DNA of 32,000 bases from Geotalea daltonii FRC-32 (GCF_000022265.1 NC_011979.1:360001-392000), one strand, 5' to 3'; numbered from the stretch's first letter, positions 1 to 26,443 are shown. A program made the numbers and translations. Notes: generated from the letters alone by a model not told the origin.

Positions 1-891
1 ATGCAGGTCAGAAGTTATTTATTTGCTTTGGTTGCCGGAATGTTGTTGGCAGGAACGGTCCATGCCGAAGAAGTAAATCCGGTGGTGGGCAAAGTGGGGG
101 ATTTTGTTCTGCGTCAGGCCGACCTGGAAAGAGTTATCGCCAACCTGACACCGGAGGCGCAGCAGAAATTCCAGGGGGAGCAGGAGCAGGCAAGCCTCGT
201 CAACCAGATCCTGCTGACCAAAGCCCTGGCAGCCAAAGCGCGAAAAGAAGGCTTCGAACGGAAGCCGGAGGTAAAGGAGCAGCTCAGCTACATTATCGAC
301 CAGTTCCTGGGACAGGAATACCTGCGCAAGGTGGTGACGGCAAATGTGGAAGTGCCGGACGCAGAGCTGAAAAAATATTACCAGGAGCACGAGAAGGACT
401 TCGTCGTTCCCGAGAGGGTCAAGGTCAGGCACATCTACTTTGCGGCGGCAAAAGACGCGACTGCCGAGGTGAAGGCTCAAGCCAGGGCAAAGGCGGAGAA
501 AATAGCAGAGCAGCTGAAAAAAGGGGGAGATTTTGCCAAGCTGGCCGGTGAAAATTCCGAAGATACCGAATCGGCAGCCAACGGAGGTGATCTGGGTTAC
601 CTGACCCCCGGCAAGACCAACTCCGAGGAATTCGAGAAGGCGGCGTTCAGCCTGAAGGCGGGGGAGGTTAGTCCAGTGGTGGAGACCCCCTTCGGTTATC
701 ACATCATCAAGGTTGACGAACGCCAGGAAAAGCGGACGGCAACATTTGAAGAGACTAAAGATTATATCAGCTCCACATTGAAGGCGCAGCTGGAGGAGAA
801 AAAGGCCAGGGAATTTCTTGACGCGGTAGCCAAGGAGGGGGGGCTGCAGGTTTTCCCAGGCAAGAAGGCAGAGGAGAAAAGCGGGAAATAA
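1..891 (+). CDS. Periplasmic parvulin/PpiC-type peptidyl-prolyl cis-trans isomerase (SurA/PrsA-like chaperone)
   Basis: N-terminal signal peptide MQVRSYLFALVAGMLLAGTVHA. C-terminal parvulin domain motifs VRHIYF, GGDLGY, PVVETPFGYHIIKV. ATG is at window position 1, so upstream context cannot be seen. Confidence 0.85.
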   Translation: MQVRSYLFALVAGMLLAGTVHAEEVNPVVGKVGDFVLRQADLERVIANLTPEAQQKFQGEQEQASLVNQILLTKALAAKARKEGFERKPEVKEQLSYIIDQFLGQEYLRKVVTANVEVPDAELKKYYQEHEKDFVVPERVKVRHIYFAAAKDATAEVKAQARAKAEKIAEQLKKGGDFAKLAGENSEDTESAANGGDLGYLTPGKTNSEEFEKAAFSLKAGEVSPVVETPFGYHIIKVDERQEKRTATFEETKDYISSTLKAQLEEKKAREFLDAVAKEGGLQVFPGKKAEEKSGK

Positions 892-909
892 CCATAACCC
901 TATGAACGT

Positions 910-980
910 AAAATGGCCTGCCAGTGTGCAGGCCATTTTTGCTGTGTTGCAAAATCGACCCGCTCCTGGCGGGTTTTTTT
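910..980 (+). terminator. Two tandem rho-independent terminators after the PPIase gene
   Basis: Hairpin 1 is aaaatggcctgc/gcaggccatttt (910-921 pairs with 928-939) followed by a T-run. Hairpin 2 is acccgc/gcgggt (958-963 pairs with 969-974) followed by T7 (974-980). Confidence 0.6.
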
Positions 981-1101
981 GTGTCCGGTGTTTCACTTGA
1001 ATAGACGGTCAGTGAACAACAAACCAAGGAGTGACATTGACAGGACAAAAAGAGAAAATAAACTGTATTAATAAAAGGTTGTTAATTTGATGGAGGCGGA
1101 C

Positions 1102-1344
1102 ATGAAAAACACACTTTCTGCAATAGCGCTCCTTTCTTTTTTTATTATGGCCGGCTGCGGTACTACCGGCGGCACTGCTTCTGTCGGGGCACTTGGTGGC
1201 GCGGCAGCTGGTGGAGGGGTGTATGAGTATCGGCTGCATAAGGCAAAGCAGAGAATAGAGAGCGAACATAAGGCAGGAAAAATGGACGACAAGGAGTACA
1301 ACGCCCGCAAGGACGAGATTGAGCGGTTGCAGCTGCTCAAATAA
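1102..1344 (+). CDS. Small lipoprotein with a Gly-rich (glycine-zipper-like) segment and a charged helical tail
   Basis: GGAGG at 1092-1096 lies 5 nt before ATG 1102. Lipobox FIMAGC. The GALGGAAAGGG tract is followed by a KE-rich helix. The track ORF starts at TTG 1087, but ATG 1102 has the better RBS. Confidence 0.55.
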   Translation: MKNTLSAIALLSFFIMAGCGTTGGTASVGALGGAAAGGGVYEYRLHKAKQRIESEHKAGKMDDKEYNARKDEIERLQLLK

Positions 1345-1376
1345 CGCCTGCAGGTCTAACATTATGGGGAAGCGGC

Positions 1377-2834
1377 ATGGGCCAAATGAAATATATCTGC
1401 ATCTTTGCTTTATACGCGTGTCTTGTCGGCTGTTACGCCATGCATCCCTCCAGCGGCGGAGGCGGGGCGACGGAACTGGCAGAGGATGCCAGAACCGTCG
1501 ATCCTGAAGACATTGCCCTTCCTTTCGGCTATCGCATCGAGGCAGTTGCTATGGGACTGACCTTTCCCACCGGAGTGACCTTTGACGAAAAGGGGAACAT
1601 TTATGTGGTGGAGGCGGGATATTCCTATGGCGAGGTATGGGAAACCCCCAGGCTTCTTCGCGTCAGGGACGGGCAGCTGGAGGTAATCGCCGAGGGAGGG
1701 AAAAACGGGCCGTGGACAGGAGCTACCCGTCACGGTGGGGCCTTCTTTGTTGCCGAAGGGGGGGAGCTCAATGGCGGCAGGATCCTGCGCATCACCGATG
1801 ACGGCAAGATAGCTGTAATTGCCGACCAGCTTCCTTCCCGTGGTGACCACCACACCAACGGCCCTGCCGTCGGGAATGACGGGCTGATCTACTTCGGCAT
1901 CGGCACGGCCACCAACTCCGGCATCGTCGGCGAGGACAACCTTCGCTTCGGCTGGTTGAAACGTTACCCGGATTTTCACGATACTGCCTGTCGCGACGTC
2001 AGACTTGCCGGCGAAAATTTCCGGACCAAGGATGTGGTCAAGGGGGAAGGTGAGGTTGCAACCGGGGCCTTTGTTCCGTTTGGCACGACCACCGTTAAAG
2101 GCCAGGTGATAAAGGGACGAATTCCATGCAACGGAGCGATTCTCAGGGTGAAGCCGGAGGGAGGGGATTTGGAGCTTTTTGCCTGGGGCTTCCGCAACCC
2201 CTTCGGACTTGCTTTTTCCCCCGATGGAGAGCTGTTCGTTACGGATAACGGCTACGACGACCGGGGGAGCAGACCGGTTTTCGGTGCCGGAGACCCGTTG
2301 TGGCTGGTGAAACAAGGCACCTGGTATGGCTGGCCCGACTACAGCGCCGGACTGCGGCTGGATGAGGGCAACCAATTCAAACCGTTCCTCCAGGAAAAAC
2401 CGCGGCTCCTGCTCTCAGAGTACCCGAACCATCCCCCCAATCCGGCGGCCATCCTACCGGTTCATGCTTCGGCAAATGGTTTCGACTTTTCCCGTAGCGA
2501 CAACTTCGGCCATCGGGGAGAGGCATTTGTGGCCGAGTTCGGGGATCAATCGCCGCCGACCGGCAAGTCTCTCGGGGCAGTGGGATTCAAGGTAGTGCGG
2601 GTGGATGTACGAACCGGGGTCATTCATGAATTCGCCGCCAACAAGGGGAAAACGACAGGGCCTGCATCGGCTCAAGGCAGTAAGGGATTAGAGCGCCCCG
2701 TTGCCGCCCGCTTCGATCCGTCGGGAGAAGCGCTTTACGTGGTGGATTTCGGGATCCTTAAGGAGACGGCAAAGGGTACCGTTCCCCAGCAGAAAACCGG
2801 AGTGTTGTGGCGAATAACGCGGGAACTGAAATAG
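1377..2834 (+). CDS. Beta-propeller dehydrogenase-like lipoprotein (PQQ-dependent sugar / sorbosone dehydrogenase family)
   Basis: Lipobox LVGC near the N-terminus. Motifs typical of GSDH-type propellers: FPTGVTFDEKGNIYVVE, HHTNGPAVGNDGLIYFGIG, WGFRNPFGLAFSPDGELFVTDNGYDDRG. GGGGA RBS lies 6 nt upstream of the ATG. Confidence 0.7.
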   Translation: MGQMKYICIFALYACLVGCYAMHPSSGGGGATELAEDARTVDPEDIALPFGYRIEAVAMGLTFPTGVTFDEKGNIYVVEAGYSYGEVWETPRLLRVRDGQLEVIAEGGKNGPWTGATRHGGAFFVAEGGELNGGRILRITDDGKIAVIADQLPSRGDHHTNGPAVGNDGLIYFGIGTATNSGIVGEDNLRFGWLKRYPDFHDTACRDVRLAGENFRTKDVVKGEGEVATGAFVPFGTTTVKGQVIKGRIPCNGAILRVKPEGGDLELFAWGFRNPFGLAFSPDGELFVTDNGYDDRGSRPVFGAGDPLWLVKQGTWYGWPDYSAGLRLDEGNQFKPFLQEKPRLLLSEYPNHPPNPAAILPVHASANGFDFSRSDNFGHRGEAFVAEFGDQSPPTGKSLGAVGFKVVRVDVRTGVIHEFAANKGKTTGPASAQGSKGLERPVAARFDPSGEALYVVDFGILKETAKGTVPQQKTGVLWRITRELK

Positions 2835-2875
2835 TCAGACAGTGCCTGTCGATTGAAGAAATGTTAGGGGGCAAG

Positions 2876-3208
2876 ATGCGGCTGATTCCACTGCTGGTCA
2901 TATCGCTTCTCTTTCTGTCCGCTTGCGGCACTCCCCGGCGTGGCGAAAACGTTGCCGGTCCATTGACTCTTGTCACAGAGAAGGAAGTCAGAGGGGAAAG
3001 ATATTTCATGACCTACTGCAACAAGTGTCATCCCCTGGGGGAGAGCGGCGTCGGCCATGCACTGAACAACAAACCTCTGCCCGGCCCTCTGATAAGGACC
3101 CAGGTCCGTCTGGGAGCGGGAGCGATGCCTGCTTTTTCCAAGGAGTTTCTCCCCGACGAGAAACTTGACGACCTCATAGTCTATCTGCAGACCCTGAGAA
3201 AGCACTGA
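2876..3208 (+). CDS. Monoheme class I c-type cytochrome, lipoprotein
   Basis: AGGGGG RBS lies 4 nt before ATG 2876. Signal/lipobox LLFLSACG. Single CNKCH heme motif and a distal Met candidate (GAGAMPAF). The track ORF start at 2807 overlaps the upstream gene and lacks an RBS. Confidence 0.8.
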   Translation: MRLIPLLVISLLFLSACGTPRRGENVAGPLTLVTEKEVRGERYFMTYCNKCHPLGESGVGHALNNKPLPGPLIRTQVRLGAGAMPAFSKEFLPDEKLDDLIVYLQTLRKH

Positions 3209-3213
3209 TTCTA

Positions 3214-4380
3214 ATGGGACAGGACGACGCATGGCACAAGGAAAACCGGGAGCGGGTATTCTGGCAGGAGTTCAGCGTGCCGTGGCGCTTCCCGGTGATC
3301 TTCACCAGAAATGTCTTCGCCCCTGCCAATAATGCACTGGCGACCGTTTTCCAAGCTGCCGGTCCGGTCCCGGTTCTTGCCATTGCCGATAGTGGCGTTG
3401 CCGAGGCAAATGACGGGCTGGCCGATGCTGTCCAAGCTTACGCATCAAGCCACAGGAACGCGCTGAGGCTGCTTTCTCCTCTTCATGTCCTTCCCGGCGG
3501 CGAGAAATGCAAAAATGGGGCGGCCCAGGTGGATCGGCTGCACCGCCTTTTCCATAAGCACAAACTTTGTCGTCATTCGGTGGTGCTGGCTATCGGCGGC
3601 GGAGCATTCCTTGATATGGCCGGTTATGCTGCCGCCACCGCCCATCGGGGCTTGAGGCTGGTCAGGCTGCCGACGACGACACTGGCCCAGAACGATGCAG
3701 GCATCGGCGTCAAGAACGGATACAACTCCTTCGGCAGGAAAAACTGGGTCGGCACCTTCGCTCCCCCCTTTGCCGTCATCAGCGATCTGAACTTCCTCAG
3801 CACCCTGCCCAACCGGGAGTGTCGGGCAGGGCTTGCCGAGGCAGTAAAGGTGGCGGTGATAAAAGACGCCGGTTTCTTTCAACTGCTGTCCGGACAAAGG
3901 AAGAAGCTGGCAGCCCTTGAACTGGAGCAGATGGAGGAAATGATTATCAGGTGTGCCGCACTGCATCTGGAGCATATAGCTGCAGGAGACCCCTTCGAGC
4001 AGGGATCGGCACGTCCCCTCGACTTCGGCCACTGGTCTGCCCATGCACTGGAGGAGGCAAGCGGTGGGGAGATCCTCCATGGCGAGGCGGTGGCCATGGG
4101 AATGGCTCTGGATTGTCTCTATGCAGCAGAAAAAGGGCTCCTGAGGGAAGAGGAACGGGATCAGATCATCCACCTGCTCCAGGACCTTGGCTTCAGGCTG
4201 TCCCATCCGGTCCTGGCGGAACTGGATCTGGAAGGAGCTCTCGACCGTTTCCGCCAGCATCTGGGCGGAACGCTTTGCATAACCCTTCCGCTCGGCATCG
4301 GCTGCCGGGCTGAGTTTCACCAGATGGACCTGGAGGTCCTGCACAGTTCAAGGGACCGGCTGATGGCCCATAAAGGATGA
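3214..4380 (+). CDS. eboD: 3-dehydroquinate synthase-like sugar-phosphate cyclase (EboD-type)
   Basis: DHQS-fold motifs GGGAFLDMAGYAAATAHRGLRLVRLPTTTLAQNDAGIGVKNG and the metal-binding region GHWSAHALE...LHGEAVAMGM. The gene context with the TatD, EboE, NPP and UbiA genes defines an ebo cluster. Confidence 0.75.
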   Translation: MGQDDAWHKENRERVFWQEFSVPWRFPVIFTRNVFAPANNALATVFQAAGPVPVLAIADSGVAEANDGLADAVQAYASSHRNALRLLSPLHVLPGGEKCKNGAAQVDRLHRLFHKHKLCRHSVVLAIGGGAFLDMAGYAAATAHRGLRLVRLPTTTLAQNDAGIGVKNGYNSFGRKNWVGTFAPPFAVISDLNFLSTLPNRECRAGLAEAVKVAVIKDAGFFQLLSGQRKKLAALELEQMEEMIIRCAALHLEHIAAGDPFEQGSARPLDFGHWSAHALEEASGGEILHGEAVAMGMALDCLYAAEKGLLREEERDQIIHLLQDLGFRLSHPVLAELDLEGALDRFRQHLGGTLCITLPLGIGCRAEFHQMDLEVLHSSRDRLMAHKG

Positions 4381-4691
4381 CGATGCGACAGAATATCAAA
4401 CCAACGGCAATGGAGCTTCTGGAATGGGACTTTGTCAAGTGCCGTTCCCGGCTGCTGGAGATCGCCGCCTTCATCGATCGCATTGATCGCTTCGGGGGAA
4501 GTGAAGAGGCACGAAAGGATTTCCGTTATCGGGCACTTTTTCAGGCCCTGGAAATCATCTCCTCCGGTAAACAGAACCGGGTCAGGGAGATCCTGTTGCT
4601 CCTGAGCGATCCCACTTTGCAGCCCCTGGAGGACGTGTTGCCGCCGGAAATCGCGCAGGGTGCGTGGAGGAATGTTCCCGGTGATCATTGA
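4377..4691 (+). CDS. Small conserved-position protein of unknown function (occupies the 'EboA' slot of the cluster; not recognisably EboA)
   Basis: ATGA start/stop overlap with the upstream gene at 4377-4380. 104 aa, helical and charged, with no signal peptide. I recognise no motif. Confidence 0.45.
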   Translation: MTMRQNIKPTAMELLEWDFVKCRSRLLEIAAFIDRIDRFGGSEEARKDFRYRALFQALEIISSGKQNRVREILLLLSDPTLQPLEDVLPPEIAQGAWRNVPGDH

Positions 4692-5484
4692 GCCGCACAT
4701 CCACATGGTTTCCCGCACCACTGACGATTACCGGGCCATGGCCATGCATGGGATCGCCATCGTCACCGAGCCCGCCTTCTGGCCCGGATATGACCGGAGA
4801 ACTGCCGCAGGATTTGCCGATTACTTTGAACAGCTGACGGTCGCCGAACCGGTTCGGGCGGCAAAGTTCGGCATCAGCCACCACTGCTGGCTCGGCCTCA
4901 ATCCCAAGGAAGCAGTCGATCTCGGCCTGGCTCTGGAGGTGCTGGAGATCCTGCCGGAATATCTTGATCGGCCGACGGTCCTGGGCCTTGGCGAGATCGG
5001 CCTGAACCGCAATGGCCGCAACGAGATCAAGGTACTGGAGTGGCAGGTGGAGCTGGCGGCGAGGCGAAATGAACTGATCCTTGTTCATACTCCCCATCTG
5101 GAAGACAAGCTGAAAGGGACCCGTCTTATTCTCGATATAATTGGTGCCGATTCCCGCATTTCCACCGACAGGGTGCTTATCGACCACGCCGAGGAACATA
5201 CCGTCGACCTGATCCTTGAGAAGGGTTTCTGGGCCGGCATTACCCTCTATCCCCACTCCAAATGCTCTGCCGACCGGGCGGTGGACATCCTTGAGACCTC
5301 AGGTTGTGAGCGGATCTGGCTGAATTCTGCCGCCGACTGGGGGGTGAGCAATCCCCTGGCGGTGGTCGAGGCAGGAGAGGAGATGCGGCGTCGCGGCTTC
5401 AGCGAGGAGGCCATAAGCGGTGTGCTATTCCGCAATCCCGCCGCTTTTCTCGGCCAATCCCCGCGGTTCAAAGTCCAGTGCTGA
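4660..5484 (+). CDS. eboB: TatD-related metal-dependent hydrolase (EboB-type)
   Basis: Amidohydrolase/TatD motifs IEPHIHM (HxH), LGEIGLN, LVHTPH, IDHAEE. The start is ambiguous: GTG 4660 or ATG 4672. Both overlap the upstream ORF. Confidence 0.75.
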   Translation: MRGGMFPVIIEPHIHMVSRTTDDYRAMAMHGIAIVTEPAFWPGYDRRTAAGFADYFEQLTVAEPVRAAKFGISHHCWLGLNPKEAVDLGLALEVLEILPEYLDRPTVLGLGEIGLNRNGRNEIKVLEWQVELAARRNELILVHTPHLEDKLKGTRLILDIIGADSRISTDRVLIDHAEEHTVDLILEKGFWAGITLYPHSKCSADRAVDILETSGCERIWLNSAADWGVSNPLAVVEAGEEMRRRGFSEEAISGVLFRNPAAFLGQSPRFKVQC

Positions 5485-6554
5485 CCTACTGCACCAATAT
5501 CCACCCCGGCCACAGCTGGGATGAGATTGTGACTAAGGTCTGGCCTCAGGTGCTGCAGGTGAAGGAAGTAGTTGCTCCCGATGCTGCATTTCCGGTCGGA
5601 CTTCGGATTTCGGCACTTGCGGCCCGGCAGGTCACTCCGGCAGCAGCAAGAAGATTCGCCGACTGCTGCGCCGATGACGGGTGCTTTATCCCCACCATCA
5701 ACGGCTTTCCCCATGGGCAGTTTTATGGCACTCCGGTCAAGGAAGGGGCCTATCTGCCAGACTGGCGCAGCCCGGAGAGGGTCCGGTATACCCTGGACCT
5801 GATCCGGCTGCTCAGACTCTGGCTCCCCCCTTCGCTGACCGGTTCCATCTCCACCCTGCCCATCGCCTACGGCCGGTACATGTGCAGAGATGATCTGGGG
5901 GTGGTGCGGAAAAACCTGCTGACAGTGCTCAGGGAGCTGGAGTTGTCCGCTTCGGCCGGAAAACCGGTCATCCTGGCCCTGGAACCGGAGCCGGGATGCC
6001 TGCTGGAAACCGCGCGGGACGTGGCCCACTTCCTGGAAGCGATGGCCTTTCCTGCCGATCTGCGTCGGCTGATCGGCATCTGCTTCGATTGCTGCCATGC
6101 TGCCGTTCTTCATGAGGAACCACGGCGAGCCTTTTCTTTGCTGGGCGAGGCGGGCATAGCCGTGACAAAGATTCATCTTTCCTCGGCAGTACGTTTCGCC
6201 ACGAATCACCTCCAGGCAGCGGCACTATTCGGAGATGATTGTTACCAGCACCAGACGAGTGTCAGGAGCCATGCCGGTACCGTCCATTTTCCCGACCTGG
6301 CGGATGCCATCAATGATGTACCTCTGCTCCAGGGTGAGTGGCGCATACACTACCATCTCCCCATCTACGACAGCGGCAACGCCCTCTACGGGACAACAAA
6401 CGATTTCATCGGCGAGGTGCTCACCTGGGCTCCGCCCCAGACCCTTCTGGAAATCGAGACCTACACCTACGCAAATCTTCCGCCGAAATTGCGCCAGGGT
6501 GGCGTGATCGAATCCATTGCCCGGGAGTTCGCCTGGCTTGGGGGAAAGCTGTGA
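5478..6554 (+). CDS. eboE: Xylose-isomerase-like TIM-barrel protein (EboE-type metabolite traffic protein)
   Basis: GTG start overlaps the eboB stop (GTGCTGA, 5478-5484). Motifs YCTNIHPG, LEPEPGC, CFDCCHAAV, WRIHYHLP, LEIETYT. Confidence 0.75.
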   Translation: MLTYCTNIHPGHSWDEIVTKVWPQVLQVKEVVAPDAAFPVGLRISALAARQVTPAAARRFADCCADDGCFIPTINGFPHGQFYGTPVKEGAYLPDWRSPERVRYTLDLIRLLRLWLPPSLTGSISTLPIAYGRYMCRDDLGVVRKNLLTVLRELELSASAGKPVILALEPEPGCLLETARDVAHFLEAMAFPADLRRLIGICFDCCHAAVLHEEPRRAFSLLGEAGIAVTKIHLSSAVRFATNHLQAAALFGDDCYQHQTSVRSHAGTVHFPDLADAINDVPLLQGEWRIHYHLPIYDSGNALYGTTNDFIGEVLTWAPPQTLLEIETYTYANLPPKLRQGGVIESIAREFAWLGGKL

Positions 6555-7918
6555 AGCGGACAGTGGTCATCAATGTTGCCGGCCTCAGTTCCTCCCTTCT
6601 TGGACCCCATACGCCAAGGATCAATGAACTTGCCGACAGCGTTTCCCGGATCCATCCGGTCTGTCCTGCAGTAACCTGCACCATGCAGGCGACCTTTCTT
6701 ACGGGAAGGCTGCCGGCGCAACACGGCATCGTCGGCAACGGCTGGTATTTTCGCGATCTGGCCGAGGTTTTTTTCTGGCGACAGTCGAACCGGCTCATTC
6801 AGGGGGAAAAGATCTGGCAGGTGGGGCGGGCCATAAATACGGCCTTCACCTGCGCCAACAGTTTCTGGTGGTACAACATGGCCACCGATGCGGACTGGAG
6901 CGTTACCCCCCGTCCCGTATATTGTGCCGACGGGCGAAAGCTGCCCGATTGCTATACCCAGCCGCCGCACCTGCGGCAGGTCTTTACCAGGCGCTTCGGC
7001 GCCTTCCCCCTCTTTCGCTTCTGGGGTCCCGCCACCTCCATCGCCTCGACCCGGTGGATCGGCGATGCTGCCATGGCTATTGAAGAGCTCTATTCCCCGG
7101 TCCTTCATCTTGTATATCTGCCTCACCTGGACTACGTCCTGCAGAAGGTGGGGCCGGAAGGATCAATCAGTAGAGATCTGCGGGAGTTGGACGAAGCCTG
7201 CGGCAGACTGCTCGACTTCTTCCGGAACCGTGGCTGCCGCGTCATCGTTCTCTCCGAGTACGGTATTTCTGCCGTTGACCGGCCGGTCCATCCCAACCGC
7301 ATCATGCGGGAGGCGGGCCTGCTGTCGACTAAAACGGATCTGGGGCGGGAATACCTCGATCCTGGGGCCAGCAGGGCGTTCGCCGTGGCTGATCACCAGG
7401 TTGCCCATATCTATGTTCGCCAGAAAAGGGATGTGGAGGGGGTGGCCGCCCTGTTTCGCCAGGTGCCGGGGATCGAGCACATTCTCGACTCATTCCGGAA
7501 GAAGGAGTGGGGGCTGGGGCACGGCCGGTCGGGTGAGTTGGTGCTGGTTGCGGGCAAGGGAAGCTGGTTCAGTTATTACTTCTGGATGGATGACGGAAAA
7601 GCACCCGATTACGCAAGGACGGTGAATATCCATGCCAAGCCGGGCTACGATCCGTGCGAATTGTTCTTCGACCCCAAACTGAAATTTCCGGCGTTGACAG
7701 CGGGGCTCTCCCTATTAAAGCAGCGGATGGGGTTGAGGACGCTGCTGGATGTGATACCAATCGATGCCGGGCTCGCCAAAGGTTCACACGGCAGGATTCC
7801 CGAAGATCCCGGAGAACTGCCGCTGCTCCTGTCCTCGGACCCACAGCTGCTTAACTCTGACAGCGTGGCGGCCCAGGATGTATTTCATGTCATCCTCGAT
7901 CATGTATTCAGGGAGTGA
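6551..7918 (+). CDS. eboF: Alkaline-phosphatase superfamily / nucleotide pyrophosphatase-phosphodiesterase-like enzyme (EboF-type)
   Basis: GTGA overlap with the eboE stop at 6551-6554, with GGGGA upstream. Motifs VVINVAGLS, PAVTCTMQATFLTGRLPAQHGIVGNGW (nucleophile Thr region), YLPHLDY, GSHG. The track ORF start at 6338 is just an in-frame open extension inside eboE. Confidence 0.75.
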   Translation: MKRTVVINVAGLSSSLLGPHTPRINELADSVSRIHPVCPAVTCTMQATFLTGRLPAQHGIVGNGWYFRDLAEVFFWRQSNRLIQGEKIWQVGRAINTAFTCANSFWWYNMATDADWSVTPRPVYCADGRKLPDCYTQPPHLRQVFTRRFGAFPLFRFWGPATSIASTRWIGDAAMAIEELYSPVLHLVYLPHLDYVLQKVGPEGSISRDLRELDEACGRLLDFFRNRGCRVIVLSEYGISAVDRPVHPNRIMREAGLLSTKTDLGREYLDPGASRAFAVADHQVAHIYVRQKRDVEGVAALFRQVPGIEHILDSFRKKEWGLGHGRSGELVLVAGKGSWFSYYFWMDDGKAPDYARTVNIHAKPGYDPCELFFDPKLKFPALTAGLSLLKQRMGLRTLLDVIPIDAGLAKGSHGRIPEDPGELPLLLSSDPQLLNSDSVAAQDVFHVILDHVFRE

Positions 7919-7922
7919 AACC

Positions 7923-8621
7923 ATGAAGCCTGTTCGTATCTATCTCGAATTGTGCAGAGTCAGCAATCTGCCGACGATCTGGATCAACACCCTGGCCGCA
8001 TGTCTGCTGTCGGGCAACTGGCAGCTGAAGAAGATATTCCTGCTACTGCTCGGCTTTTCATTGATGTACTGCGGCGGCATGGCCATGAACGACTGGCTCG
8101 ATGCCGATATGGACCGGCAGACACGACCCGACCGGCCGATCCCGTCCGGTAGGATCGGTGCAGACGAGGCCAGGATCTGCTGGCTATCCCTCTTTGCCGT
8201 GTCACTTTGCCTTTTTTTTGCGGCCGGGGGCTATATCGCCTTCTGCGCCGCCGTAATCCTGCTGCTCTTCATCACAACCTACAACCTGGGGCATGGTCTT
8301 TCACCCCTTGCCGCCATCCCCATGGCTGGTTGCCGCTTCATGATCTATATGATCAGCGGCATTGTCTGCGCCGGAAAACCGAACCTTGTGCTCGTGCTTC
8401 TGGCTGCGGTGCAGTTCGGCTACATTCTTTACCTTACCATCAAGGCCCGGCGGGAAAAAGAAAACGGTCAGATCATATCCCAAATTCCCCTTTTTCTTGC
8501 CGGAGTGCCTCTCGTTGATGGTGTCGCCATGGCCCTCACCATGGGTATCGTTTGGCTCCTGGCCGGTTTTGCCGGGGGCATTGCCACCCTGGCCGCCCAG
8601 GCGAAAATAAGGGGCGACTAG
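7923..8621 (+). CDS. eboC: UbiA-family polyprenyltransferase (EboC-type)
   Basis: GGGAG RBS lies 7 nt before ATG 7923. Multi-TM protein with the NDWLDADMDRQ (NDxxDxxxD) prenyl-diphosphate binding motif. The track start at 7764 overlaps eboF. Confidence 0.8.
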   Translation: MKPVRIYLELCRVSNLPTIWINTLAACLLSGNWQLKKIFLLLLGFSLMYCGGMAMNDWLDADMDRQTRPDRPIPSGRIGADEARICWLSLFAVSLCLFFAAGGYIAFCAAVILLLFITTYNLGHGLSPLAAIPMAGCRFMIYMISGIVCAGKPNLVLVLLAAVQFGYILYLTIKARREKENGQIISQIPLFLAGVPLVDGVAMALTMGIVWLLAGFAGGIATLAAQAKIRGD

Positions 8622-8723
8622 CTCACGGACGGTGGACCAAGAACCGGGCAACAGCCGCAACAGCTTGAAATGGCGTCCGTTGCTGCCATACTGTTCATAT
8701 AAAATATTCCTAAGGAGATGGTC

Positions 8724-10379
8724 ATGGAAAAAGCGATGTTCTGCAGACAGTGCGAACAAGCGGCCCAGGGAGTGGGTTGCGAGGTGATGGGCAATTGCGG
8801 CAAGAATCCCCAGGTCGCTGCCCTGCTGGACCTGATGATCCATGGACTCGAAGGAGTCGCAGTCTATGCCCACCGGGCACGGGAATTGGGGGTGAAGGAC
8901 CCGGAAGTGGACCGGTTCATGCTCGATGGTCTTTTCACCAGGGTTACCAATGTGAACTTTGACCCGGAAGATATTGCCGGCCGCCTGCGGCGATGCTACC
9001 AGATGAAGGATCAGGCGCGGTCCTTGTTCGAGAAGGCTTACCAGGAACGGAAAGGGGAGAAGGCTCCGGAGTTCCATAGCGGGCCTGAGGCATGGCAGCC
9101 TGCGGAAGATACGGCAGGGCTGATCACCCAGGGCCGACAATACGGGGTCTTGACCTGGCACCAGGACCCGGATACGCTGTCGGCCCTGGAGCTGGTCCTC
9201 TACGGTCTGCTCGGTATGGGGGCGTTTGCCTGGCACGCGGCGGAACTTGGCAAGGAGGATGATGAAATCTATGCCTTTATCCACCGTGCCCTGGCGGCTG
9301 CGGCTGATCGCCGGATCACCCTTCAGGATTTTGTCTCACTTGCATTGGAATGCGGCAAGATGAACCTGCGCACCATGGAGCTCCTTTACCAGGGGCATGC
9401 CGAGCGTCTTGCCGATCCGGAGCCGATGAAGGTAAACCTGGGAACCCGTGGCGGTAAGGGAATCGTCGTTTCCGGGCACGACCTGCCCATGCTGGAGGAG
9501 ATCCTGAAACAGAGCGAGGGAAAGGGGGTCAATGTCTATACCCACGGCGAGATGTTACCGGCCAACGGTTACCCGAGGCTGAGAAAATACGCCCATTTCG
9601 CCGGCCACTTCGGCACCGCCTGGCAGAACCAGACCAGGGAACTCCCTGATTTCCCCGGTGCGATCATCTTCAATACCAACTGCATCCAGCGCCCCGACCC
9701 CTCCTATACCGACCGGCTTTTCACCTGGGGGGAAGTGGCCTGGCCCGGCATTACCCATCTGGAGGGGTTTGATTTTTCGCCGGTGATAGAAAAAGCCATG
9801 CAGCTTCCCGACCTGCCGGAAAAGCCGGGACAGGAAATTCTGGTCGGTTTCGGCCATGAGGCGGTCTTCAAGGTGGCCGGGGCAGTGGTGGACGCGGTAA
9901 AAACAGGTGCTATCCGCCGTTTTTTCCTCATCGGCGGCTGCGATGGGGCCAAGCCGGGACGCAACTACTTCACCGAGCTGGCACAACAGGTGCCCAAGGA
10001 CTGTGTGATTCTAACCCTTGCCTGCGGCAAGAACCGTTTCAACCGGCTGGAATTCGGCGATATTGGCGGCATTCCCAGACTGCTGGACGTGGGGCAGTGC
10101 AACGATGCCTATTCGGCCATCCGCATCGCCCTTGCCCTGGCCGAGGCCTTTGAATGCGGGGTCAATGAACTGCCGCTGTCCATGATCCTCTCCTGGTACG
10201 AGCAGAAGGCGCACGTCATCCTCCTGACTCTTCTCCATCTGGGGATTAAGGGCATCCGGCTCGGTCCCTCCCTGCCCGCGTACGTTTCTCCGGGGGTACT
10301 GGATTTCCTCGTCCAGAACTATGATCTGGGGCCGACCACCACTGCCGAAAACGACCTGCGGCAGGCCCTTGGCGCATAG
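8724..10379 (+). CDS. hcp: Hybrid cluster protein / hydroxylamine reductase
   Basis: The N-terminal Cys cluster MFCRQCEQAAQGVGCEVMGNCGK is the typical Hcp signature. Also GHDL, FNTNC, FLIGGCDG, LACGKNRF, GQCNDAYSA. AAGGAG RBS is spaced 6 nt from ATG 8724 (ATG 8718 abuts the RBS). Confidence 0.9.
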   Translation: MEKAMFCRQCEQAAQGVGCEVMGNCGKNPQVAALLDLMIHGLEGVAVYAHRARELGVKDPEVDRFMLDGLFTRVTNVNFDPEDIAGRLRRCYQMKDQARSLFEKAYQERKGEKAPEFHSGPEAWQPAEDTAGLITQGRQYGVLTWHQDPDTLSALELVLYGLLGMGAFAWHAAELGKEDDEIYAFIHRALAAAADRRITLQDFVSLALECGKMNLRTMELLYQGHAERLADPEPMKVNLGTRGGKGIVVSGHDLPMLEEILKQSEGKGVNVYTHGEMLPANGYPRLRKYAHFAGHFGTAWQNQTRELPDFPGAIIFNTNCIQRPDPSYTDRLFTWGEVAWPGITHLEGFDFSPVIEKAMQLPDLPEKPGQEILVGFGHEAVFKVAGAVVDAVKTGAIRRFFLIGGCDGAKPGRNYFTELAQQVPKDCVILTLACGKNRFNRLEFGDIGGIPRLLDVGQCNDAYSAIRIALALAEAFECGVNELPLSMILSWYEQKAHVILLTLLHLGIKGIRLGPSLPAYVSPGVLDFLVQNYDLGPTTTAENDLRQALGA

Positions 10380-10465
10380 CGAAAAAATAGGGGACGGTCC
10401 TTTCCTCGATTGAATTTTGCGTTATTATTTAATGCATTGTCATGATTATAAAACAGGAGGGACTG

Positions 10466-11926
10466 ATGAAACATCCATATGCTAAAGTTGCGGCTGCCAT
10501 TGCCGGGGTACTGGCGCTGGCGGCTACCTCTGTTGCGGCGCCGGCGGTCTTCAACGTGGATCGGGAATTTTACCCGTTCTATCCGTCGCTTATCAAGTGG
10601 AACAAGTCGCCGGCGGAGTTCACTCCACCAGCCGACTGCGGCGGCTGCCATGAAAAACAGTTCCGGGAGTGGAACGGTTCCGTGCACCAGCTTGCCTTCC
10701 TTGACCCGGTCTACCAGGGGGAGCTGAACAAGGCGGTCAAGGCGGTGGGGCATGAGGTTACCCGCCAGTGCGAGGGTTGCCACTCCGCGGCGGGCATGGT
10801 AACCGGCGAAATTAAAGGGTCGGGACTGGCCGGATTAAGCCCCATGGCCCTGGGAGGCGTCTCCTGCGATATCTGCCATTCCATCAGCGATACTACCCAC
10901 TGGCAGACCCCGTCCCATGAGCCTGAAAATGGCTCGATGATCCTCAGTCCCGGTCTTTCCGGCAAGGGGGGAACCGATCTCGTCAAGCGCGGACCGTGGA
11001 AGCCTTCTGCCGATTGTGGCGGTGGCTTCCACAAATGCGAAGAGTCTTCGCTGCACCAGCAAGCCGACCTCTGTGCCTCCTGCCACCAGGTCTACCATTA
11101 CGATGCCCATTTCCCCCTGGAAGCCACCTACCTGGAGTGGAAACATGGCCCCTATGCCCAAAAATCAATCCTCTGCCAGGACTGCCACATGGTGGATACC
11201 GCCACCTTCAAACGCACGGCCGATGAATTCAGAAAGCCGGAAAGGGGTGAATACCACCACTACTTCAATGGTGCCAACTATCTCCTTTATTATCTGGCCG
11301 GGGCTGCAGCCGAGAGAACGGGTGACAGGGAGCTGGTCGCATCCCTGAAGGAAAAATACCAGATGGCGGTGGAGCATCTGAAGAGTGCCGCAGCACTGGA
11401 GATGACGCCGGTTTACCGGGCAGGGCAGCTCAGTGAGCTGAAGGTCAGGGTAAAGAATATCCGCGCCGGACACAACCTGCCCACCTCCCTGACCAACGTG
11501 CGGCAGATGTGGCTGGAGATAACGGCAAAAGACGAGAAGGGTAAGGTGGTATTGGCCAGCGGCGCCGTACAGAAGGACGGCACCTTGCCGGAAAACACAC
11601 GCATCTTCAATTCGGACGGCATGGGAAAGGACTTCCATTTTGCCGTGGATCCATGGGTGGTAACGGCATTTTCCCGCCACGATACCATTCCTCCCCACGG
11701 CTACAAGGACGTTTTCTACGGCATGAACGGGGCGAAGGGGGCTAAGAAGGTAACGGTGGAGGTAAAGCTGCGCTATCGCCAGGCTGACCAGAAGGTGGCG
11801 GAGGCGCTTCTGGCCGCGGTGCCCAAGGACATGAACCTGAAGGAGATTTACGGCCTGGAGAAGGTGCCGCAGCTGCCGGTGGTAGATATGACCATGGAGC
11901 GGCAGACCTTCCAGGTAAGGAAATAG
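10466..11926 (+). CDS. Periplasmic pentaheme c-type cytochrome with a non-heme C-terminal domain
   Basis: AGGAGG lies 5 nt before ATG 10466. Signal peptide ...LAATSVAAPA. Five CxxCH motifs (CGGCH, CEGCH, CDICH, CASCH, CQDCH). The C-terminal ~200 aa carry no heme motif (IRAGHNLPTSLTNVRQMWLEI...). Confidence 0.85.
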   Translation: MKHPYAKVAAAIAGVLALAATSVAAPAVFNVDREFYPFYPSLIKWNKSPAEFTPPADCGGCHEKQFREWNGSVHQLAFLDPVYQGELNKAVKAVGHEVTRQCEGCHSAAGMVTGEIKGSGLAGLSPMALGGVSCDICHSISDTTHWQTPSHEPENGSMILSPGLSGKGGTDLVKRGPWKPSADCGGGFHKCEESSLHQQADLCASCHQVYHYDAHFPLEATYLEWKHGPYAQKSILCQDCHMVDTATFKRTADEFRKPERGEYHHYFNGANYLLYYLAGAAAERTGDRELVASLKEKYQMAVEHLKSAAALEMTPVYRAGQLSELKVRVKNIRAGHNLPTSLTNVRQMWLEITAKDEKGKVVLASGAVQKDGTLPENTRIFNSDGMGKDFHFAVDPWVVTAFSRHDTIPPHGYKDVFYGMNGAKGAKKVTVEVKLRYRQADQKVAEALLAAVPKDMNLKEIYGLEKVPQLPVVDMTMERQTFQVRK

Positions 11927-11928
11927 GG

Positions 11929-12330
11929 TTACAGCTGCTCGATGAGCTCTATCCCGCGGTGCTCCACTTCAATCAGCTCGATGACCACCTCGTGGCCCGA
12001 GGATTTCAGTTGAAGCCCTCTGACCTTGACCGGAAAGGCACTGCTGACTTGCCAGGCGGCAATTTTCTGATGGGTATCGTTGTGGAGAGTGATGCTGATG
12101 GTGCGGCGTTCGATGGTCTGGGGTTTGACACTGCACAGCCACTTGTAAAGATCGGTGCCGAAAGTGAGCATGCCGCTTGATAGAACCAGGTTAGCCGTCT
12201 GCAGTTTCAGCTTTTCCCGATCGTGGAGGGACAGGTCTTCCTGGTCAAGGGTAACCTGCGAAAATCCGGCAAAGATACCATGGCTCTCCACAAGGTATCT
12301 GAATTGGGGAAACGGCATTTCACCATCCAT
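11929..12330 (-). CDS. Orphan phage-tail-tube-fold protein (T4 gp19 / Afp1 / PVC1-like 'conserved phage tail region protein')
   Basis: 133 aa. By eye it aligns with contractile-injection tube proteins: FRYLVESHGIFAGFSQV (cf. F.VEIDGI.ia.FsevsG), LVLSSGMLTFGTDLYKWL (cf. itLkrGit.d..lw.W), RRTISITLHNDTHQKIAAWQVSSAFPVKVRGLQLKSSGHEVVIELIEVEHRGIEL (cf. g.I.l.d..g.e.arW.f.nAwP.k..gp.l.A.snevaiEel.l.hegle). Confidence 0.55.
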   Translation of the reverse strand: MDGEMPFPQFRYLVESHGIFAGFSQVTLDQEDLSLHDREKLKLQTANLVLSSGMLTFGTDLYKWLCSVKPQTIERRTISITLHNDTHQKIAAWQVSSAFPVKVRGLQLKSSGHEVVIELIEVEHRGIELIEQL

Positions 12331-12391
12331 ATGATTGCTCTCCTCAGGTAACGGGTAATGATTAAATTAAGATAATCTTATCATAAATATC

Positions 12392-12407
12392 TGGCAAATC
12401 AGCTGCA
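12392..12407 (+). promoter_or_regulatory. Candidate sigma-54 (-24/-12) promoter upstream of the c7 cytochrome gene
   Basis: TGGCAAatcagCTGCA has GG and GC at the canonical 12-nt offset (consensus TGGCAC-N5-TTGCW). It lies about 89 nt upstream of ATG 12496. Confidence 0.35.
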
Positions 12408-12495
12408 CATATGGGAGAAAGAAAAACTTAAAGGCATCGGTAGTGCTGCAGTAACATGTTATCAGTGACTATTGTTGTGATGAAAGGAGGGAGAA

Positions 12496-12801
12496 ATGAA
12501 ACGAGCTGTTTTGATCATTCTGCTGTTGTCAATTGGTGCGTTGTCTGCGGTTGCATTTGCCGCAACGCCGAAAAATCCGGGTCCCGAGATCATCAATCTG
12601 AAAATGGGGGTGATGATACTGCCTTTTTCCCACAGGAAGCACCAACAGGACCTGAACAATGAATGCTTTCACTGCCATCCGAAAAAAACCGGCGGCAAGA
12701 TTGACAACTGGAACAAGGAAACTGCCCACCAAATCTGCATCAGCTGTCATGATCTGGAAGAAAAAGGACCAGTGGAATGCAAGCAGTGCCATAAGAAATA
12801 A
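12496..12801 (+). CDS. Triheme cytochrome c7 (PpcA family)
   Basis: AAAGGAGGG RBS and signal peptide ...SAVAFA. Three CxxCH motifs (CFHCH, CISCH, CKQCH). LPFSHRKHQQ...C..CH and the C-terminal GPVECKQCHKK closely parallel PpcA (FPHKAHQK...CKKCH ... GPTKCGECHKK). Confidence 0.85.
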   Translation: MKRAVLIILLLSIGALSAVAFAATPKNPGPEIINLKMGVMILPFSHRKHQQDLNNECFHCHPKKTGGKIDNWNKETAHQICISCHDLEEKGPVECKQCHKK

Positions 12802-12850
12802 TTGCTCGGACTGGCCTGTAGATTCTGAGTTAGTAGTCAAATGACATTGC

Positions 12851-12884
12851 AAGAGGCTGCCAGTTACCGGCAGCCTCTTTTTTT
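12851..12884 (+). terminator. Rho-independent terminator after the c7 gene
   Basis: 11-bp stem aagaggctgcc/ggcagcctctt (12851-12861 pairs with 12869-12879), 7-nt loop, then a T-run to 12884. It overlaps the stop codon of the convergent DUF2267 gene. Confidence 0.7.
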
Positions 12885-13266
12885 ATGCCTGATCGACAAT
12901 TGCCGCCCAGTCAGGGGGCAACTTCGTTTCTATCTCTCCCATGATGTCGGCCCCCTCCTCGCTCTCCTTGACACAGTGGAAAACACGCCCCACCAGATCC
13001 CTGGCTTGCTGCCAGTCCAGGTGCATCTGTTCCGCCACGGCGGAGAAGAAATCGTCGATGGATAGCTGGACCGGCGCTTGCTGCTGGCCGCGCAAGGTGC
13101 TGAAATCCAGCTCCGGGGGGAGGATGTTGGTCAGTTCCCTGGCCCAGTCTTCGTCAATCTTGCTCGCCAGAACCCCGAGAACGGTCTTGATGGCAGAGTC
13201 AGCAGCTTTTTCATCATTGATGAAGGGAAGTTCCATAACCTGATTCATGTAGCTGCGATAGTCCAT
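12883..13266 (-). CDS. DUF2267-family protein
   Basis: 127 aa. N-terminus MDYRSYMNQVMELPFINDEKAADSAIKTVLGVLASKI and the repeated helical half are typical of DUF2267. Confidence 0.6.
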   Translation of the reverse strand: MDYRSYMNQVMELPFINDEKAADSAIKTVLGVLASKIDEDWARELTNILPPELDFSTLRGQQQAPVQLSIDDFFSAVAEQMHLDWQQARDLVGRVFHCVKESEEGADIMGEIETKLPPDWAAIVDQA

Positions 13267-13285
13267 TGGTGCCTCCTTTTAAGGG

Positions 13286-14737: not shown

Positions 14738-15057
14738 GGAAACCTCCGGAAGGCACAGCCGGGAGAAAATCGGTAATCAGGCTGCTGTTTTACCAGACCG
14801 ATATCAGGCAGCAGAGGTCTCGCTGCACCCGGTCTGTTCCGGAACGTCTTCGATGAATTTATGGTAGTCCATTTCATCCTTCCTTACGTTCGATTTTCCC
14901 TTGGCCTATTAAAAAAGCATAACATAGCCGTGATGACGGTCAACGGCCCGGCAAGGCCGGGAATCAGGTCCCCGGTGACAATAATCACATATTAAAGGAG
15001 TTCTTTGTCGGTATCCTGAAGCAACGGTAAAACCGCTACAGTGCAAGGAGACGACAA

Positions 15058-15393
15058 ATGCTGAAAAAAATGACAAACATGGTTTTCCCCATGGTCCTCA
15101 TGCTGCAGGCCTGCTTATTCACATATGCCCATGCCGATGCTTCCGCCAGCCGAAAGAGTGCCATTCTGCAGCAGAGGGGTCCCATGCTGCAGAAGCATGC
15201 CTCTGCCGCCGTTGTGCCTGAAAGAACGGAAAACGGCATGCTGTATAAAGCAAATTGCGCCATCTGTCATGGACAGGCCAAACGTGGCCAAGCCAGCTCG
15301 CTGATCGAGAATGCCATCAGGAAAAACACCGGAGGAATGGGCTCGCTCAGGTTTCTGACCCAGGAGCAGATACGGACCATAGCTGATTTCTGA
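15058..15393 (+). CDS. Small secreted monoheme c-type cytochrome
   Basis: AAGGAG RBS lies 7 nt upstream. Signal peptide present. Single CAICH. The C-terminal domain YKANCAICHGQAKRGQASSLIENAIRKNTGGMGSLRFLTQEQIRTIADF is paralogous to the C-terminus of the 21816-22457 protein. Confidence 0.75.
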   Translation: MLKKMTNMVFPMVLMLQACLFTYAHADASASRKSAILQQRGPMLQKHASAAVVPERTENGMLYKANCAICHGQAKRGQASSLIENAIRKNTGGMGSLRFLTQEQIRTIADF

Positions 15394-15407
15394 TTACCGA
15401 AGGTTAA

Positions 15408-15435
15408 TTGATAAAAAAATTTAATTAGATATAAT
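15408..15435 (+). promoter_or_regulatory. Strong sigma-70-type promoter for the tolC-like/PMT/GT2 operon
   Basis: TTGATA (15408-15413), 16-bp spacer, TATAAT (15430-15435), about 35 nt before ATG 15471. Confidence 0.55.
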
Positions 15436-15470
15436 CCTCTTAGAATTCGCACTTCCAAGGGGATTTTTTT

Positions 15471-17051: not shown

Positions 17052-17065
17052 ATAATCAGGCTAAC

Positions 17066-25984: not shown

Positions 25985-26131
25985 ATGACCACAACATTAA
26001 TTCTGTAAAAAAATTAATAGAAAACCACAAGTGAACATGAATAGAAAGTCTTGAAAGGGTGATGGTTGGCATTTGCCGGGGGGGCGAAGGACCCCCTTGC
26101 AAAAGTGGGTTATGTGAGATGAGGAATGAGA

Positions 26132-26443
26132 TTAACCCCAATAAGCTTTATCGTGGGGACCTAGGGCAATAAATTTGAGAGTATCGTCTGGGCATTGCTG
26201 ACAATCGGCACAGAGAACGATAGCATCATCACCTTTTTTCCGGCAAATCGAGCAGTACAGATAAATGATCAGAAAATTTCGACGAACAGAGCAACTGTAA
26301 TAACCCCGGAAATTTCCTTTAAGGGGTTCACCCAAAGAAATCGGATTTGCGGTGATCATGTCAATTTTTTTACGGACGACATCCTTTATTGCGTTATGTT
26401 TTTTAAGTGATGTGACGAAATCATCACTAAACATGAGGTTCAT
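26132..26443 (-). CDS. RelE/ParE-superfamily type II toxin with an internal Cys-rich insertion
   Basis: LGEPLKGNFRGYYSCSVRRNFLIIY ... LKFIALGPHDKAY matches the RelE/ParE core. CSICRKKGDDAIVLCADCQQC is inserted between the strands. ATGA overlap with the upstream antitoxin gene. Confidence 0.65.
   Translation of the reverse strand: MNLMFSDDFVTSLKKHNAIKDVVRKKIDMITANPISLGEPLKGNFRGYYSCSVRRNFLIIYLYCSICRKKGDDAIVLCADCQQCPDDTLKFIALGPHDKAYWG

Follow-up and report, generated by a model that had tools for sequence, protein, structure and literature searches.

Thousands of bacterial genomes, and some algal plastids, carry the ebo genes, whose function was cryptic for a decade; why, then, should one ebo cluster be headed by two genes for periplasmic redox proteins? 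We addressed this question in a 32,000-nucleotide stretch of the genome of Geotalea daltonii FRC-32 (NC_011979.1:360001-392000; hereafter the window), in which a beta-propeller lipoprotein and a monohaem cytochrome c are encoded directly upstream of eboD-A-B-E-F-C. We find that a single predicted operon joins this redox pair to the ebo genes, that the propeller and the cytochrome form an obligate module across phyla, and that the linkage of the module to ebo recurs in other genomes. The reading that we prefer, and to which we give a probability of about one half, sees in the pair a periplasmic oxidoreductase, restricted to certain lineages, that tailors the prenylated product of the ebo pathway.

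The operon and its boundary signals are as follows, with positions counted from the first nucleotide of the window.

957..975, + strand: terminator-like hairpin followed by a T-run, 3' of a PpiC/SurA-like gene; likely upstream boundary of the operon.
1037..1064, + strand: promoter-like site, sigma-70-like (TTGACA-16-TAAACT, 10/12), the best match and a candidate operon promoter by consensus match only.
1087..1344, + strand: small glycine-rich lipoprotein of 85 residues, lipobox MAGC, 32 nucleotides 5' of the propeller gene.
1377..2834, + strand: propeller lipoprotein of 485 residues with a predicted six-bladed GSDH/TrAA12 fold; probable quinoprotein-type periplasmic dehydrogenase.
2876..3208, + strand: cytochrome c lipoprotein of 110 residues, monohaem class I, with the motifs CNKCH and GAMPAF.
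3214..4380, + strand: eboD, DHQS-like sugar phosphate cyclase (NCBIfam NF004852, 535 bits; Pfam DHQ_synthase and DHQS_C; function from the literature).
4377..4691, + strand: short protein of 104 residues in the eboA position, positionally conserved between eboD and eboB.
4660..5484, + strand: eboB, TatD-like hydrolase (Pfam TatD_DNase, a borderline 26.4 bits; orthologues in ebo clusters).
5478..6554, + strand: eboE, xylose-isomerase-like TIM barrel (NCBIfam NF035939 TIM_EboE, 331.4 bits against a cut-off of 250).
6551..7918, + strand: eboF, type I phosphodiesterase / alkaline-phosphatase family (Pfam Phosphodiest, 190 bits; GTG start).
7923..8621, + strand: eboC, UbiA-family prenyltransferase, integral membrane (Pfam UbiA, 73 bits; ATG start read from the sequence).

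The propeller gene ends (TAG, 2832-2834) 41 nucleotides before the ATG of the cytochrome c gene at 2876, which is preceded by an AGGGGG ribosome site, and the cytochrome c gene ends (TGA, 3206-3208) only five nucleotides, TTCTA, before the ATG of eboD at 3214. Within the ebo cluster, eboD and eboA overlap by 4 nucleotides, eboA and eboB also overlap, eboB and eboE overlap by 7 nucleotides, the stop of eboE and the start of eboF share the sequence GTGA (6551-6554), and eboF and eboC are 4 nucleotides apart. A consensus scan of positions 800-9000 found no terminator- or promoter-like site on the + strand in either the 41- or the 5-nucleotide gap; the RNA around the 41-nucleotide spacer (2800-2900) folds no better than shuffled sequence (z = +1.2) and forms no stable structure, and an Rfam search of the window returned no family. 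Beyond eboC, a gap of 96 nucleotides with promoter-like sites intervenes before hcp (8718). Given these tight or overlapping junctions, and boundary signals at both ends, the genes are most simply read as one operon, running from about 1087 or 1377 to 8621, in the order small lipoprotein, propeller, cytochrome c, eboD-A-B-E-F-C. A preliminary description of the locus, made from the DNA alone, had placed the propeller gene 41 nucleotides ahead of the cytochrome gene, and the cytochrome gene 5 nucleotides ahead of eboD without a terminator in between, and the coordinates and the scan agree with it on each point. The small lipoprotein at the head of the operon has no family match and is conserved only in Geotalea-like loci (L001, L003 and L012 of the comparison below); because it is absent from the corresponding cassette of Geobacter sp. 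DSM 9736, it lies outside the conserved module.

Both upstream products are predicted to be exported and lipidated. The propeller begins MGQMKYICIFALYACLVGC, with the lipobox LVGC, and the cytochrome begins MRLIPLLVISLLFLSAC, with the lipobox LSAC. EboD, EboA, EboB, EboE and EboF have no N-terminal hydrophobic leader, and EboC is a polytopic UbiA protein, so that the division drawn in the preliminary description, between lipobox-bearing upstream products and ebo enzymes free of signal peptides, is borne out. The prediction extends to the relatives of the two proteins: inspected by eye, every listed orthologue of either has a cysteine right behind its hydrophobic leader. This cysteine opens a conserved motif, C-Y-x-[LM]-R-x-S-G-G-G-Q for the propellers and C-G-[ST]-A-R-R-G-E-P for the cytochromes. 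Of the 79 cytochromes, 50 fit a strict lipobox expression, as do 38 of 47 propellers, and Cys19 of the propeller is invariant in an alignment with 20 homologues of about 60% identity (alignment A1).

What kind of protein is the propeller? By sequence it is marginally a member of the GSDH family: the Pfam GSDH model (PF07995) scores 36.5 bits against a cut-off of 25 and spans only the 77 residues 260-336, and TIGR03606 scores 33.8 bits against a cut-off of 434.55. An AlphaFold2 model built from the 20 homologues (mean predicted local distance difference test score 81.8, predicted template-modelling score 0.86) comprises an N-terminal helix, a disordered glycine-rich tether and a six-bladed propeller. 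When this model was compared with the Protein Data Bank (PDB) by Foldseek, the 18 best matches were all six-bladed sugar dehydrogenases dependent on pyrroloquinoline quinone (PQQ) or fungal AA12 enzymes, among them 2ism, 1qbi/1c9u, 6i1q, 3das, 6jt5, 3a9g and 2g8s, with E-values of 4e-14 to 6e-12 and target template-modelling scores of 0.55-0.74. The modelled protein thus has the six-bladed GSDH/AA12 fold. A search of the PDB with the A1 profile was dominated by designed 'Pizza' propellers and found no solved structure close in sequence. Two other family assignments were considered. Membership of the ScyD/ScyE family (NF033206) was rejected, the score of 63.5 bits lying below the cut-off of 80. 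The PVC-type haem-binding CxxCH proteins (TIGR02604 plus TIGR02603; Pfam DUF7133), themselves an uncharacterised family, match both members of the pair below threshold, TIGR02604 over 326 residues of the propeller (61.4 bits, cut-off 122.2) and the TIGR02603 haem domain weakly and partially on the cytochrome (19.9 bits, cut-off 68.15); a genuine resemblance would make the pair a split counterpart of such a protein, but both scores are below cut-off and the two parts sit on separate genes.

Several residues expected of a quinoprotein are conserved in the propeller. In a HMMER alignment to the soluble glucose dehydrogenase (sGDH) of A. calcoaceticus, His144 falls on H158, Arg228-Asn229 on R273-N274, Gln246-Gly247-Pro248 on N291-G292-Y293 and Tyr263 on Y317. 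In sGDH, His144 is the general base, Arg228-Asn229 polarise the C5 carbonyl of PQQ, and the active-site calcium ion is bound by the carbonyls of Gly247 and Pro248 together with Glu253 and Tyr263. H158, R273, N274, N291 and Y293 are invariant in alignment A1 and Y317 is nearly so; K397, R408 and R440 in the C-terminal part are invariant as well. The propeller shares its modelled fold, its catalytic histidine and its Arg-Asn pair with the six-bladed PQQ sugar dehydrogenases (sGDH, E. coli Asd/YliI, T. thermophilus TTHA0570 and AA12/CcPDH), from which it differs in that no more than one or two blades resemble theirs in sequence, that it is about 140 residues larger, with insertions, and that it is a lipoprotein whose partner is a separate lipoprotein cytochrome c. 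Electrons from PQQ sugar dehydrogenases go to a cytochrome: sGDH reduces cytochrome b562, and in CcPDH the acceptor is a cytochrome b domain fused to the enzyme. Taking sequence and model together, the protein is a probable quinoprotein-type periplasmic dehydrogenase, which would use PQQ if the likeness to sGDH extends to the cofactor.

The cytochrome carries a single haem motif, CNKCH, and the distal methionine motif GAMPAF, and with 44.5 bits against the Pfam Cytochrome_CBB3 cut-off of 27 it has the features of a class I c-type cytochrome. To follow the two proteins through other genomes, one genome per species was scanned with two propeller motifs, yielding 80 loci (designated here by L numbers, as are all loci of the comparison) in Desulfuromonadota, Desulfobacterota, Nitrospirota, Acidobacteriota, Gemmatimonadota, Bacteroidota, Verrucomicrobiota, Pseudomonadota, Planctomycetota and Methylomirabilota. 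A homologue of the cytochrome lies directly 3' of the propeller gene in 79 of the 80, the contig of the eightieth ending 21 nucleotides past the propeller, and CxxCH is kept in all 79 cytochromes. Pairing of this strictness across phyla makes propeller and cytochrome c an obligate module, very widespread, highly conserved and hitherto uncharacterised. No third gene family is conserved beside the pair across the 80 loci, the other neighbours being lineage-specific. A candidate fusion of the two proteins, a multidomain GSDH protein of 1135 residues in Adhaeribacter (L080), was rejected, having no cytochrome match and marginal similarity to the propeller; an argument from gene fusion would then have nothing behind it but the name of an NCBIfam model matched below threshold, and we leave it out of the evidence.

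Is the association with ebo peculiar to Geotalea? In 15 of the 80 loci, ebo genes or genes of the 'ino-type' cluster, which a 2026 bioRxiv preprint describes as an alternative lacking eboD, lie within 10 kb of the pair, mostly abutting the cytochrome c gene, and they do so in at least six different gene orders over three phyla. The pair is followed by D-A-B-E-F-C in Geobacteraceae (L001, L003, L012), by C-D-A-B-E-F in Manganitrophaceae (L038, L040), by B-C-F in Desulfobacteraceae (L015, L024, L028) and by eboC alone in a metagenome-assembled genome (MAG) of Syntrophobacteraceae (L007); B-F and a convergent C-E-D lie near it in a Nitrospiraceae MAG (L049), and E-F lies 3 kb 5' of it in Adhaeribacter (L080). 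In Nitrospira L005 the order is pair, ino1, TIM, B, TIM, C, F, and L006, L013 and L017 are similar; these four loci, from Nitrospira and groundwater deltaproteobacterial MAGs, encode a myo-inositol-1-phosphate synthase and two xylose-isomerase-like TIM barrels, with or without eboB, eboC and eboF. By our arithmetic, random placement in a 4-Mb genome would bring ebo to within 10 kb of the pair in about 0.5% of cases if every genome had ebo, which only about 3.5% do, so that 15 of 80 loci in some seven independent architectures is far beyond chance, on an estimate that ignores phylogeny. The eight-gene cassette of the window recurs in Geobacter sp. DSM 9736 (L162), where its genes again abut but its flanks are wholly different, which indicates that the cassette moves as a block. 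In a neighbour-joining tree without support values, the ebo-linked propellers make up one clade of Nitrospirota, Desulfobacterota and Geobacteraceae, all anaerobes or microaerophiles; the members of that clade found unlinked are L004 and L009, on contigs too short to tell, together with L002, L030 and L065. At the end of the Manganitrophaceae cassette L040, directly 3' of eboF, is a gene for a periplasmic Cu/Zn superoxide dismutase (17937-18518).

We then viewed the association from the side of ebo, using 80 metagenomic loci fetched with an EboE profile and further loci beyond these. The position upstream of eboD proved to have other occupants. In L157 and L114, a GSDH protein resembling HHIP, a cytochrome c of 114-122 residues with the haem motif CTHCH and a TMEM220-like protein lie directly 5' of eboD, and all three recur in L128 at a distance of 5 kb from ebo. 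This GSDH is of the classical kind (Pfam 117 bits, with a signal peptide) and is not orthologous to the propeller of the window, so that these loci represent an independent convergence of a GSDH and a cytochrome c on ebo; a further GSDH paralogue lies 3' of eboF in L157 and L152. The two modules are alike in combining an exported GSDH-fold propeller with a small monohaem cytochrome c, placed directly 5' of eboD in L157 and L114, and differ in that the HHIP-like proteins have a signal peptide without an evident lipobox and are accompanied by the extra small membrane protein. The HHIP-like GSDH of L157 was also tried as a bridge between our propeller and sGDH, and was set aside because its alignment did not extend past the N-terminal and central blades.

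Other occupants are of different kinds. In L091, a high-GC, non-cyanobacterial contig, a propeller that passes the ScyD/ScyE family cut-off (7588-8811; 90.3 bits, with 80 required) and bears a signal peptide stands between eboB and eboD, along with a TMEM220-like protein; proteins of ScyE type therefore accompany ebo outside scytonemin clusters. In other Desulfuromonadales and Desulfobacterota, an O-methyltransferase, a YdjY protein (PF27149) and a squalene-hopene-cyclase-like protein precede eboD (L165, 5789-7716; L167, 4705-7638; L170, 4299-7370); YdjY and the cyclase-like protein are found in L081, L086 and L087 too, and L171 has an O-methyltransferase and an efflux system 5' of eboD. The cyclase-like protein (390 residues) is a candidate for the missing drimane cyclase, a role that the 2026 preprint tentatively assigns to EboC. 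With such varied genes 5' of eboD, the position behaves as a tailoring slot of changing content, in the manner of biosynthetic gene clusters, and its occupants, two kinds of GSDH with cytochrome c, a ScyE-family propeller, and the O-methyltransferase, YdjY and cyclase-like set, argue that ebo products are chemically diversified between lineages. The pair of the window is a lineage-specific accessory module, one of several alternatives at this slot, and is not part of the core ebo function.

A further gene of the neighbourhood emerged from these comparisons. The TMEM220-like membrane protein (PF15071, about 116 residues) occurs in 10 of the 160 loci from the propeller and EboE scans (L001-L160), always beside eboD, beside a GSDH-cytochrome pair, or both. 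It adjoins eboD in L157 (2106-2456), L114 (8292-8645, - strand), L129 (5376-5846, - strand), L145 (282-761, - strand) and L091 (about 7300-7681), and it stands divergently 5' of the pair in Hymenobacter (L061, L062), Solirubrum (L064) and Adhaeribacter (L080, 9245-9595, - strand). It looks like an unrecognised ebo-associated gene.

How might a periplasmic oxidoreductase serve the ebo pathway? Yurchenko et al. (2016) defined the ebo operon, leaving inserted genes unanalysed, and Klicki et al. (2018) found that ebo mutants pile up the scytonemin monomer in the cytoplasm, proposing that it is exported to the periplasm, where ScyE acts. The 2026 preprint reports the ebo genes as thallusin biosynthesis genes, with core genes in 4,405 of 124,295 genomes (about 3.5%); EboC farnesylates hydroxyquinaldates, and the enzyme of the oxidative conversion of saccharoquinoline to thallusin is left unidentified. 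Saccharoquinoline is a drimane fused to 6,7,8-trihydroxyquinoline-2-carboxylic acid, and thallusin, an algal morphogen, is a prenylated hydroxyquinoline, a ring-opened and further oxidised relative of saccharoquinoline. For the head group of the ebo product, a cyclitol-derived group, a prenylated cyclitol and, as a precursor stage of thallusin, a farnesylated trihydroxyquinoline carboxylate have been proposed. Cytochrome, PQQ and propeller are nowhere mentioned by Yurchenko et al. (2016), the terms 'dehydrogenase', 'cytochrome c' and 'PQQ' are absent from the 2026 preprint, and our literature search on PQQ synthesis in Geobacter, or on a propeller-cytochrome pair, gave nothing usable. In accord with the preliminary description, whose author was aware of no such redox partner for ebo, these two papers and Klicki et al. 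(2018) do not mention one. In the literature searched, the combination of the pair with ebo is thus an undescribed module, a new accessory variant built of a known fold and a known type of electron acceptor.

Set against the ebo (EDB) cluster as these three papers describe it, the six ebo genes of the window match in family content, and they are syntenic with many other clusters; the differences are the two periplasmic redox genes at the 5' end and the short protein of 104 residues in the eboA position. A functional parallel is the scytonemin system of Nostoc punctiforme (PMC6282210), in which cytoplasmic ScyABC, ebo-dependent export and periplasmic ScyD/E/F follow the same two-compartment logic, the ebo genes being tied there to a periplasmic beta-propeller on which a late oxidation depends. 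The window differs from it in having a propeller of GSDH/AA12 type with a cytochrome c of its own, no scy genes, and a non-phototrophic host of the Geobacteraceae.

On this background, the tailoring role that we favour would work as follows. Cytoplasmic and membrane Ebo enzymes would build a prenylated product, whose prenyl tail would hold it in the membrane with the head group facing the periplasm; the tethered propeller would oxidise that head group at the surface of whichever membrane the lipoproteins reside in, and the electrons would pass to its own tethered cytochrome c and not to O2. The preliminary description had likewise suggested a two-compartment pathway in which a periplasmic dehydrogenase oxidises an ebo-made metabolite and reduces its dedicated cytochrome. 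That outline stands in so far as the genes are co-operonic, the products predicted to be exported, the fold and catalytic residues kept, the cytochrome an obligate companion and the linkage to ebo recurrent; its 'carrier-bound metabolite' derives from the 2018 model of scytonemin export, in place of which the 2026 preprint puts thallusin biosynthesis. As the linkage recurs in several anaerobic or microaerophilic phyla, the pair is a testable candidate for oxygen-independent periplasmic oxidation, a concrete and clonable one for a post-export redox step, and it offers a means of asking what the ebo product does in strict anaerobes, where O2-dependent chemistry is unavailable.

Several observations weigh against a tailoring role, and most of them speak equally for its main rival, namely that the pair is a free-standing periplasmic dehydrogenase for a common substrate from the envelope or the environment, for example an aldose, which has come to accompany ebo in one clade, by common regulation or joint transfer, without acting on an ebo metabolite. 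No ebo gene lies within 10 kb of the pair in 65 of the 80 loci, where neighbours such as SDR, TonB receptor and helicase genes vary with the lineage; Geomonas RF6 (L161) and Geobacter UBA9976 (L002) hold the pair alone; and the orthologous pair is found in none of the 80 metagenomic EboE loci, of which 38 measure 8 kb or more. The pair is about 60% identical across phyla, the propeller being equally conserved with and without ebo, which suggests a common substrate that need not be derived from ebo. In L168 the propeller is reduced to an N-terminal remnant of 163 residues (6724-7215), 62% identical to residues 1-154, while an intact cytochrome c still overlaps eboD and ebo is retained, so that the propeller is either dispensable or recently decayed there, unless the metagenome assembly is flawed. 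The preliminary description had looked to other ebo-containing genomes for the pairing, and the answer is a divided one: it recurs, in at least three phyla and several gene orders, but it is not a general feature of ebo.

The active site, too, is only partly that of sGDH. Asp163 and Glu253 of sGDH are unconserved, aligning to T177 and P307 (the latter adjoined by the invariant D306), and the C-terminal ligands of the PQQ carboxylates could not be mapped, a phmmer search of the PDB with residues 340-485 returning noise only. PQQ synthesis requires O2, and several of the host lineages are strict anaerobes, which together make the cofactor uncertain. The preliminary description had named the lack of a cofactor pocket as grounds for giving up the dehydrogenase; since H158 and R273-N274 are kept, that objection does not apply to the testable part of the pocket.

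Against a free-standing dehydrogenase, in turn, speak the at least six gene orders over three phyla in which the pair meets ebo, usually abutting or overlapping it; the second, non-orthologous GSDH with cytochrome c that joined ebo independently; and the TMEM220-like gene common to ebo clusters and unlinked pairs. The top EboE homologues also include those of four Pontibacter species in which the pair stands apart from ebo (P. saemangeumensis, P. cellulosilyticus, P. sp. H249 and P. locisalis), so that pair and ebo co-occur in those genomes, although both may simply be common in the family. On balance we consider the free-standing dehydrogenase possible but doubtful, and clearly less probable than a tailoring role in the ebo pathway.

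Because PQQ needs O2 for its synthesis and the lineages of the ebo-linked clade are anaerobes or microaerophiles, two bolder readings may be put forward. The first is a specific form of the tailoring role, in which the pair would supply these lineages (Geobacteraceae, Desulfobacterota, Nitrospirota) with a reaction otherwise missing from the ebo/thallusin pathway, an oxygen-independent oxidation of the 6,7,8-trihydroxyquinoline head of a saccharoquinoline-like meroterpenoid to the ortho-quinone at the periplasmic face. If true, formation of the ortho-quinone would be the first step towards a ring-opened product of thallusin type, with the electrons entering the respiratory cytochrome pool; we hold this catechol-type chemistry to be unlikely. 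The second, which we rate slightly lower again, turns the relation round: the ebo product, or its quinoline-quinone, would itself be a PQQ-like cofactor or tight ligand of the propeller, replacing PQQ where O2-dependent synthesis is impossible. The propeller does keep the residues that in sGDH touch the quinone face of PQQ and serve as base, no pqq genes lie within the 32-kb window, the ebo-linked clade has the physiology just named, and the reported core of the ebo pathway, 6,7,8-trihydroxyquinoline-2-carboxylic acid, has an 8-O / ring-N / 2-carboxylate face that, by our own chemical reasoning, mimics the O5 / N6 / 7-carboxylate metal-binding face of PQQ. The idea is entirely inferential, however; the propeller also occurs, apart from ebo, in aerobic Bacteroidota, it is missing from most ebo clusters, and a molecule bearing a farnesyl or drimane group would be odd as a prosthetic group.

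Least probable of all is a non-catalytic propeller, which would bind the exported metabolite in the periplasm or act as its scaffold or chaperone, as proposed for ScyE-type proteins, with the cytochrome serving another redox role: animal HHIP proteins of the GSDH fold are non-enzymatic and HHIP proteins are among the structural matches, and a bona fide ScyE-family propeller sits inside the ebo cluster of L091, but the match of our own propeller to that family is sub-threshold, its catalytic histidine and Arg-Asn pair are invariant, and the coupling to cytochrome c in 79 of 80 loci is hard to explain without a redox role.

The ebo genes of the window are themselves recognisable to different degrees. 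EboE exceeds its NCBIfam equivalog cut-off, EboD has orthologues at the corresponding place of many clusters, EboC scores 82.7 bits against an equivalog cut-off of 250 (NF035940) and has positional orthologues recovered by an iterated hidden Markov model, and EboB and EboF have syntenic orthologues in L003, L012, L040, L162 and others. The protein in the eboA position matches neither NCBIfam EboA model (NF035937, NF035938) and has no BLASTP match to the bona fide EboA of 310 residues in L091; a similar short protein of 96-108 residues occupies the eboA position in L162, L165, L167 and L171.

The closest gene order to that of the window is the near-identical one of Geotalea toluenoxydans JCM 15764 (L001), with 92% identity in the propeller and 97% in EboE, and Geotalea sp. 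SG265 (L003) is likewise close. In the L001 draft (10001-17238), the propeller, cytochrome c, eboD, eboB, eboE and eboF genes are each broken across reading frames, probably through sequencing frameshifts of the draft, so that its operon annotation is unreliable. Downstream of eboC, the window encodes a hybrid-cluster protein / hydroxylamine reductase (hcp, 757 bits) and a multihaem c554-type cytochrome (8718-11926); hcp, which has promoter-like sites of its own, keeps the same position in L001, L003 and L012, and does not do so in Geobacter sp. DSM 9736. Further along, positions 26001-29000 have a GC content of 0.40-0.50 against about 0.57 elsewhere and include a gene for a HipA-family toxin kinase (27211-28509); this stretch is probably a horizontally acquired islet.

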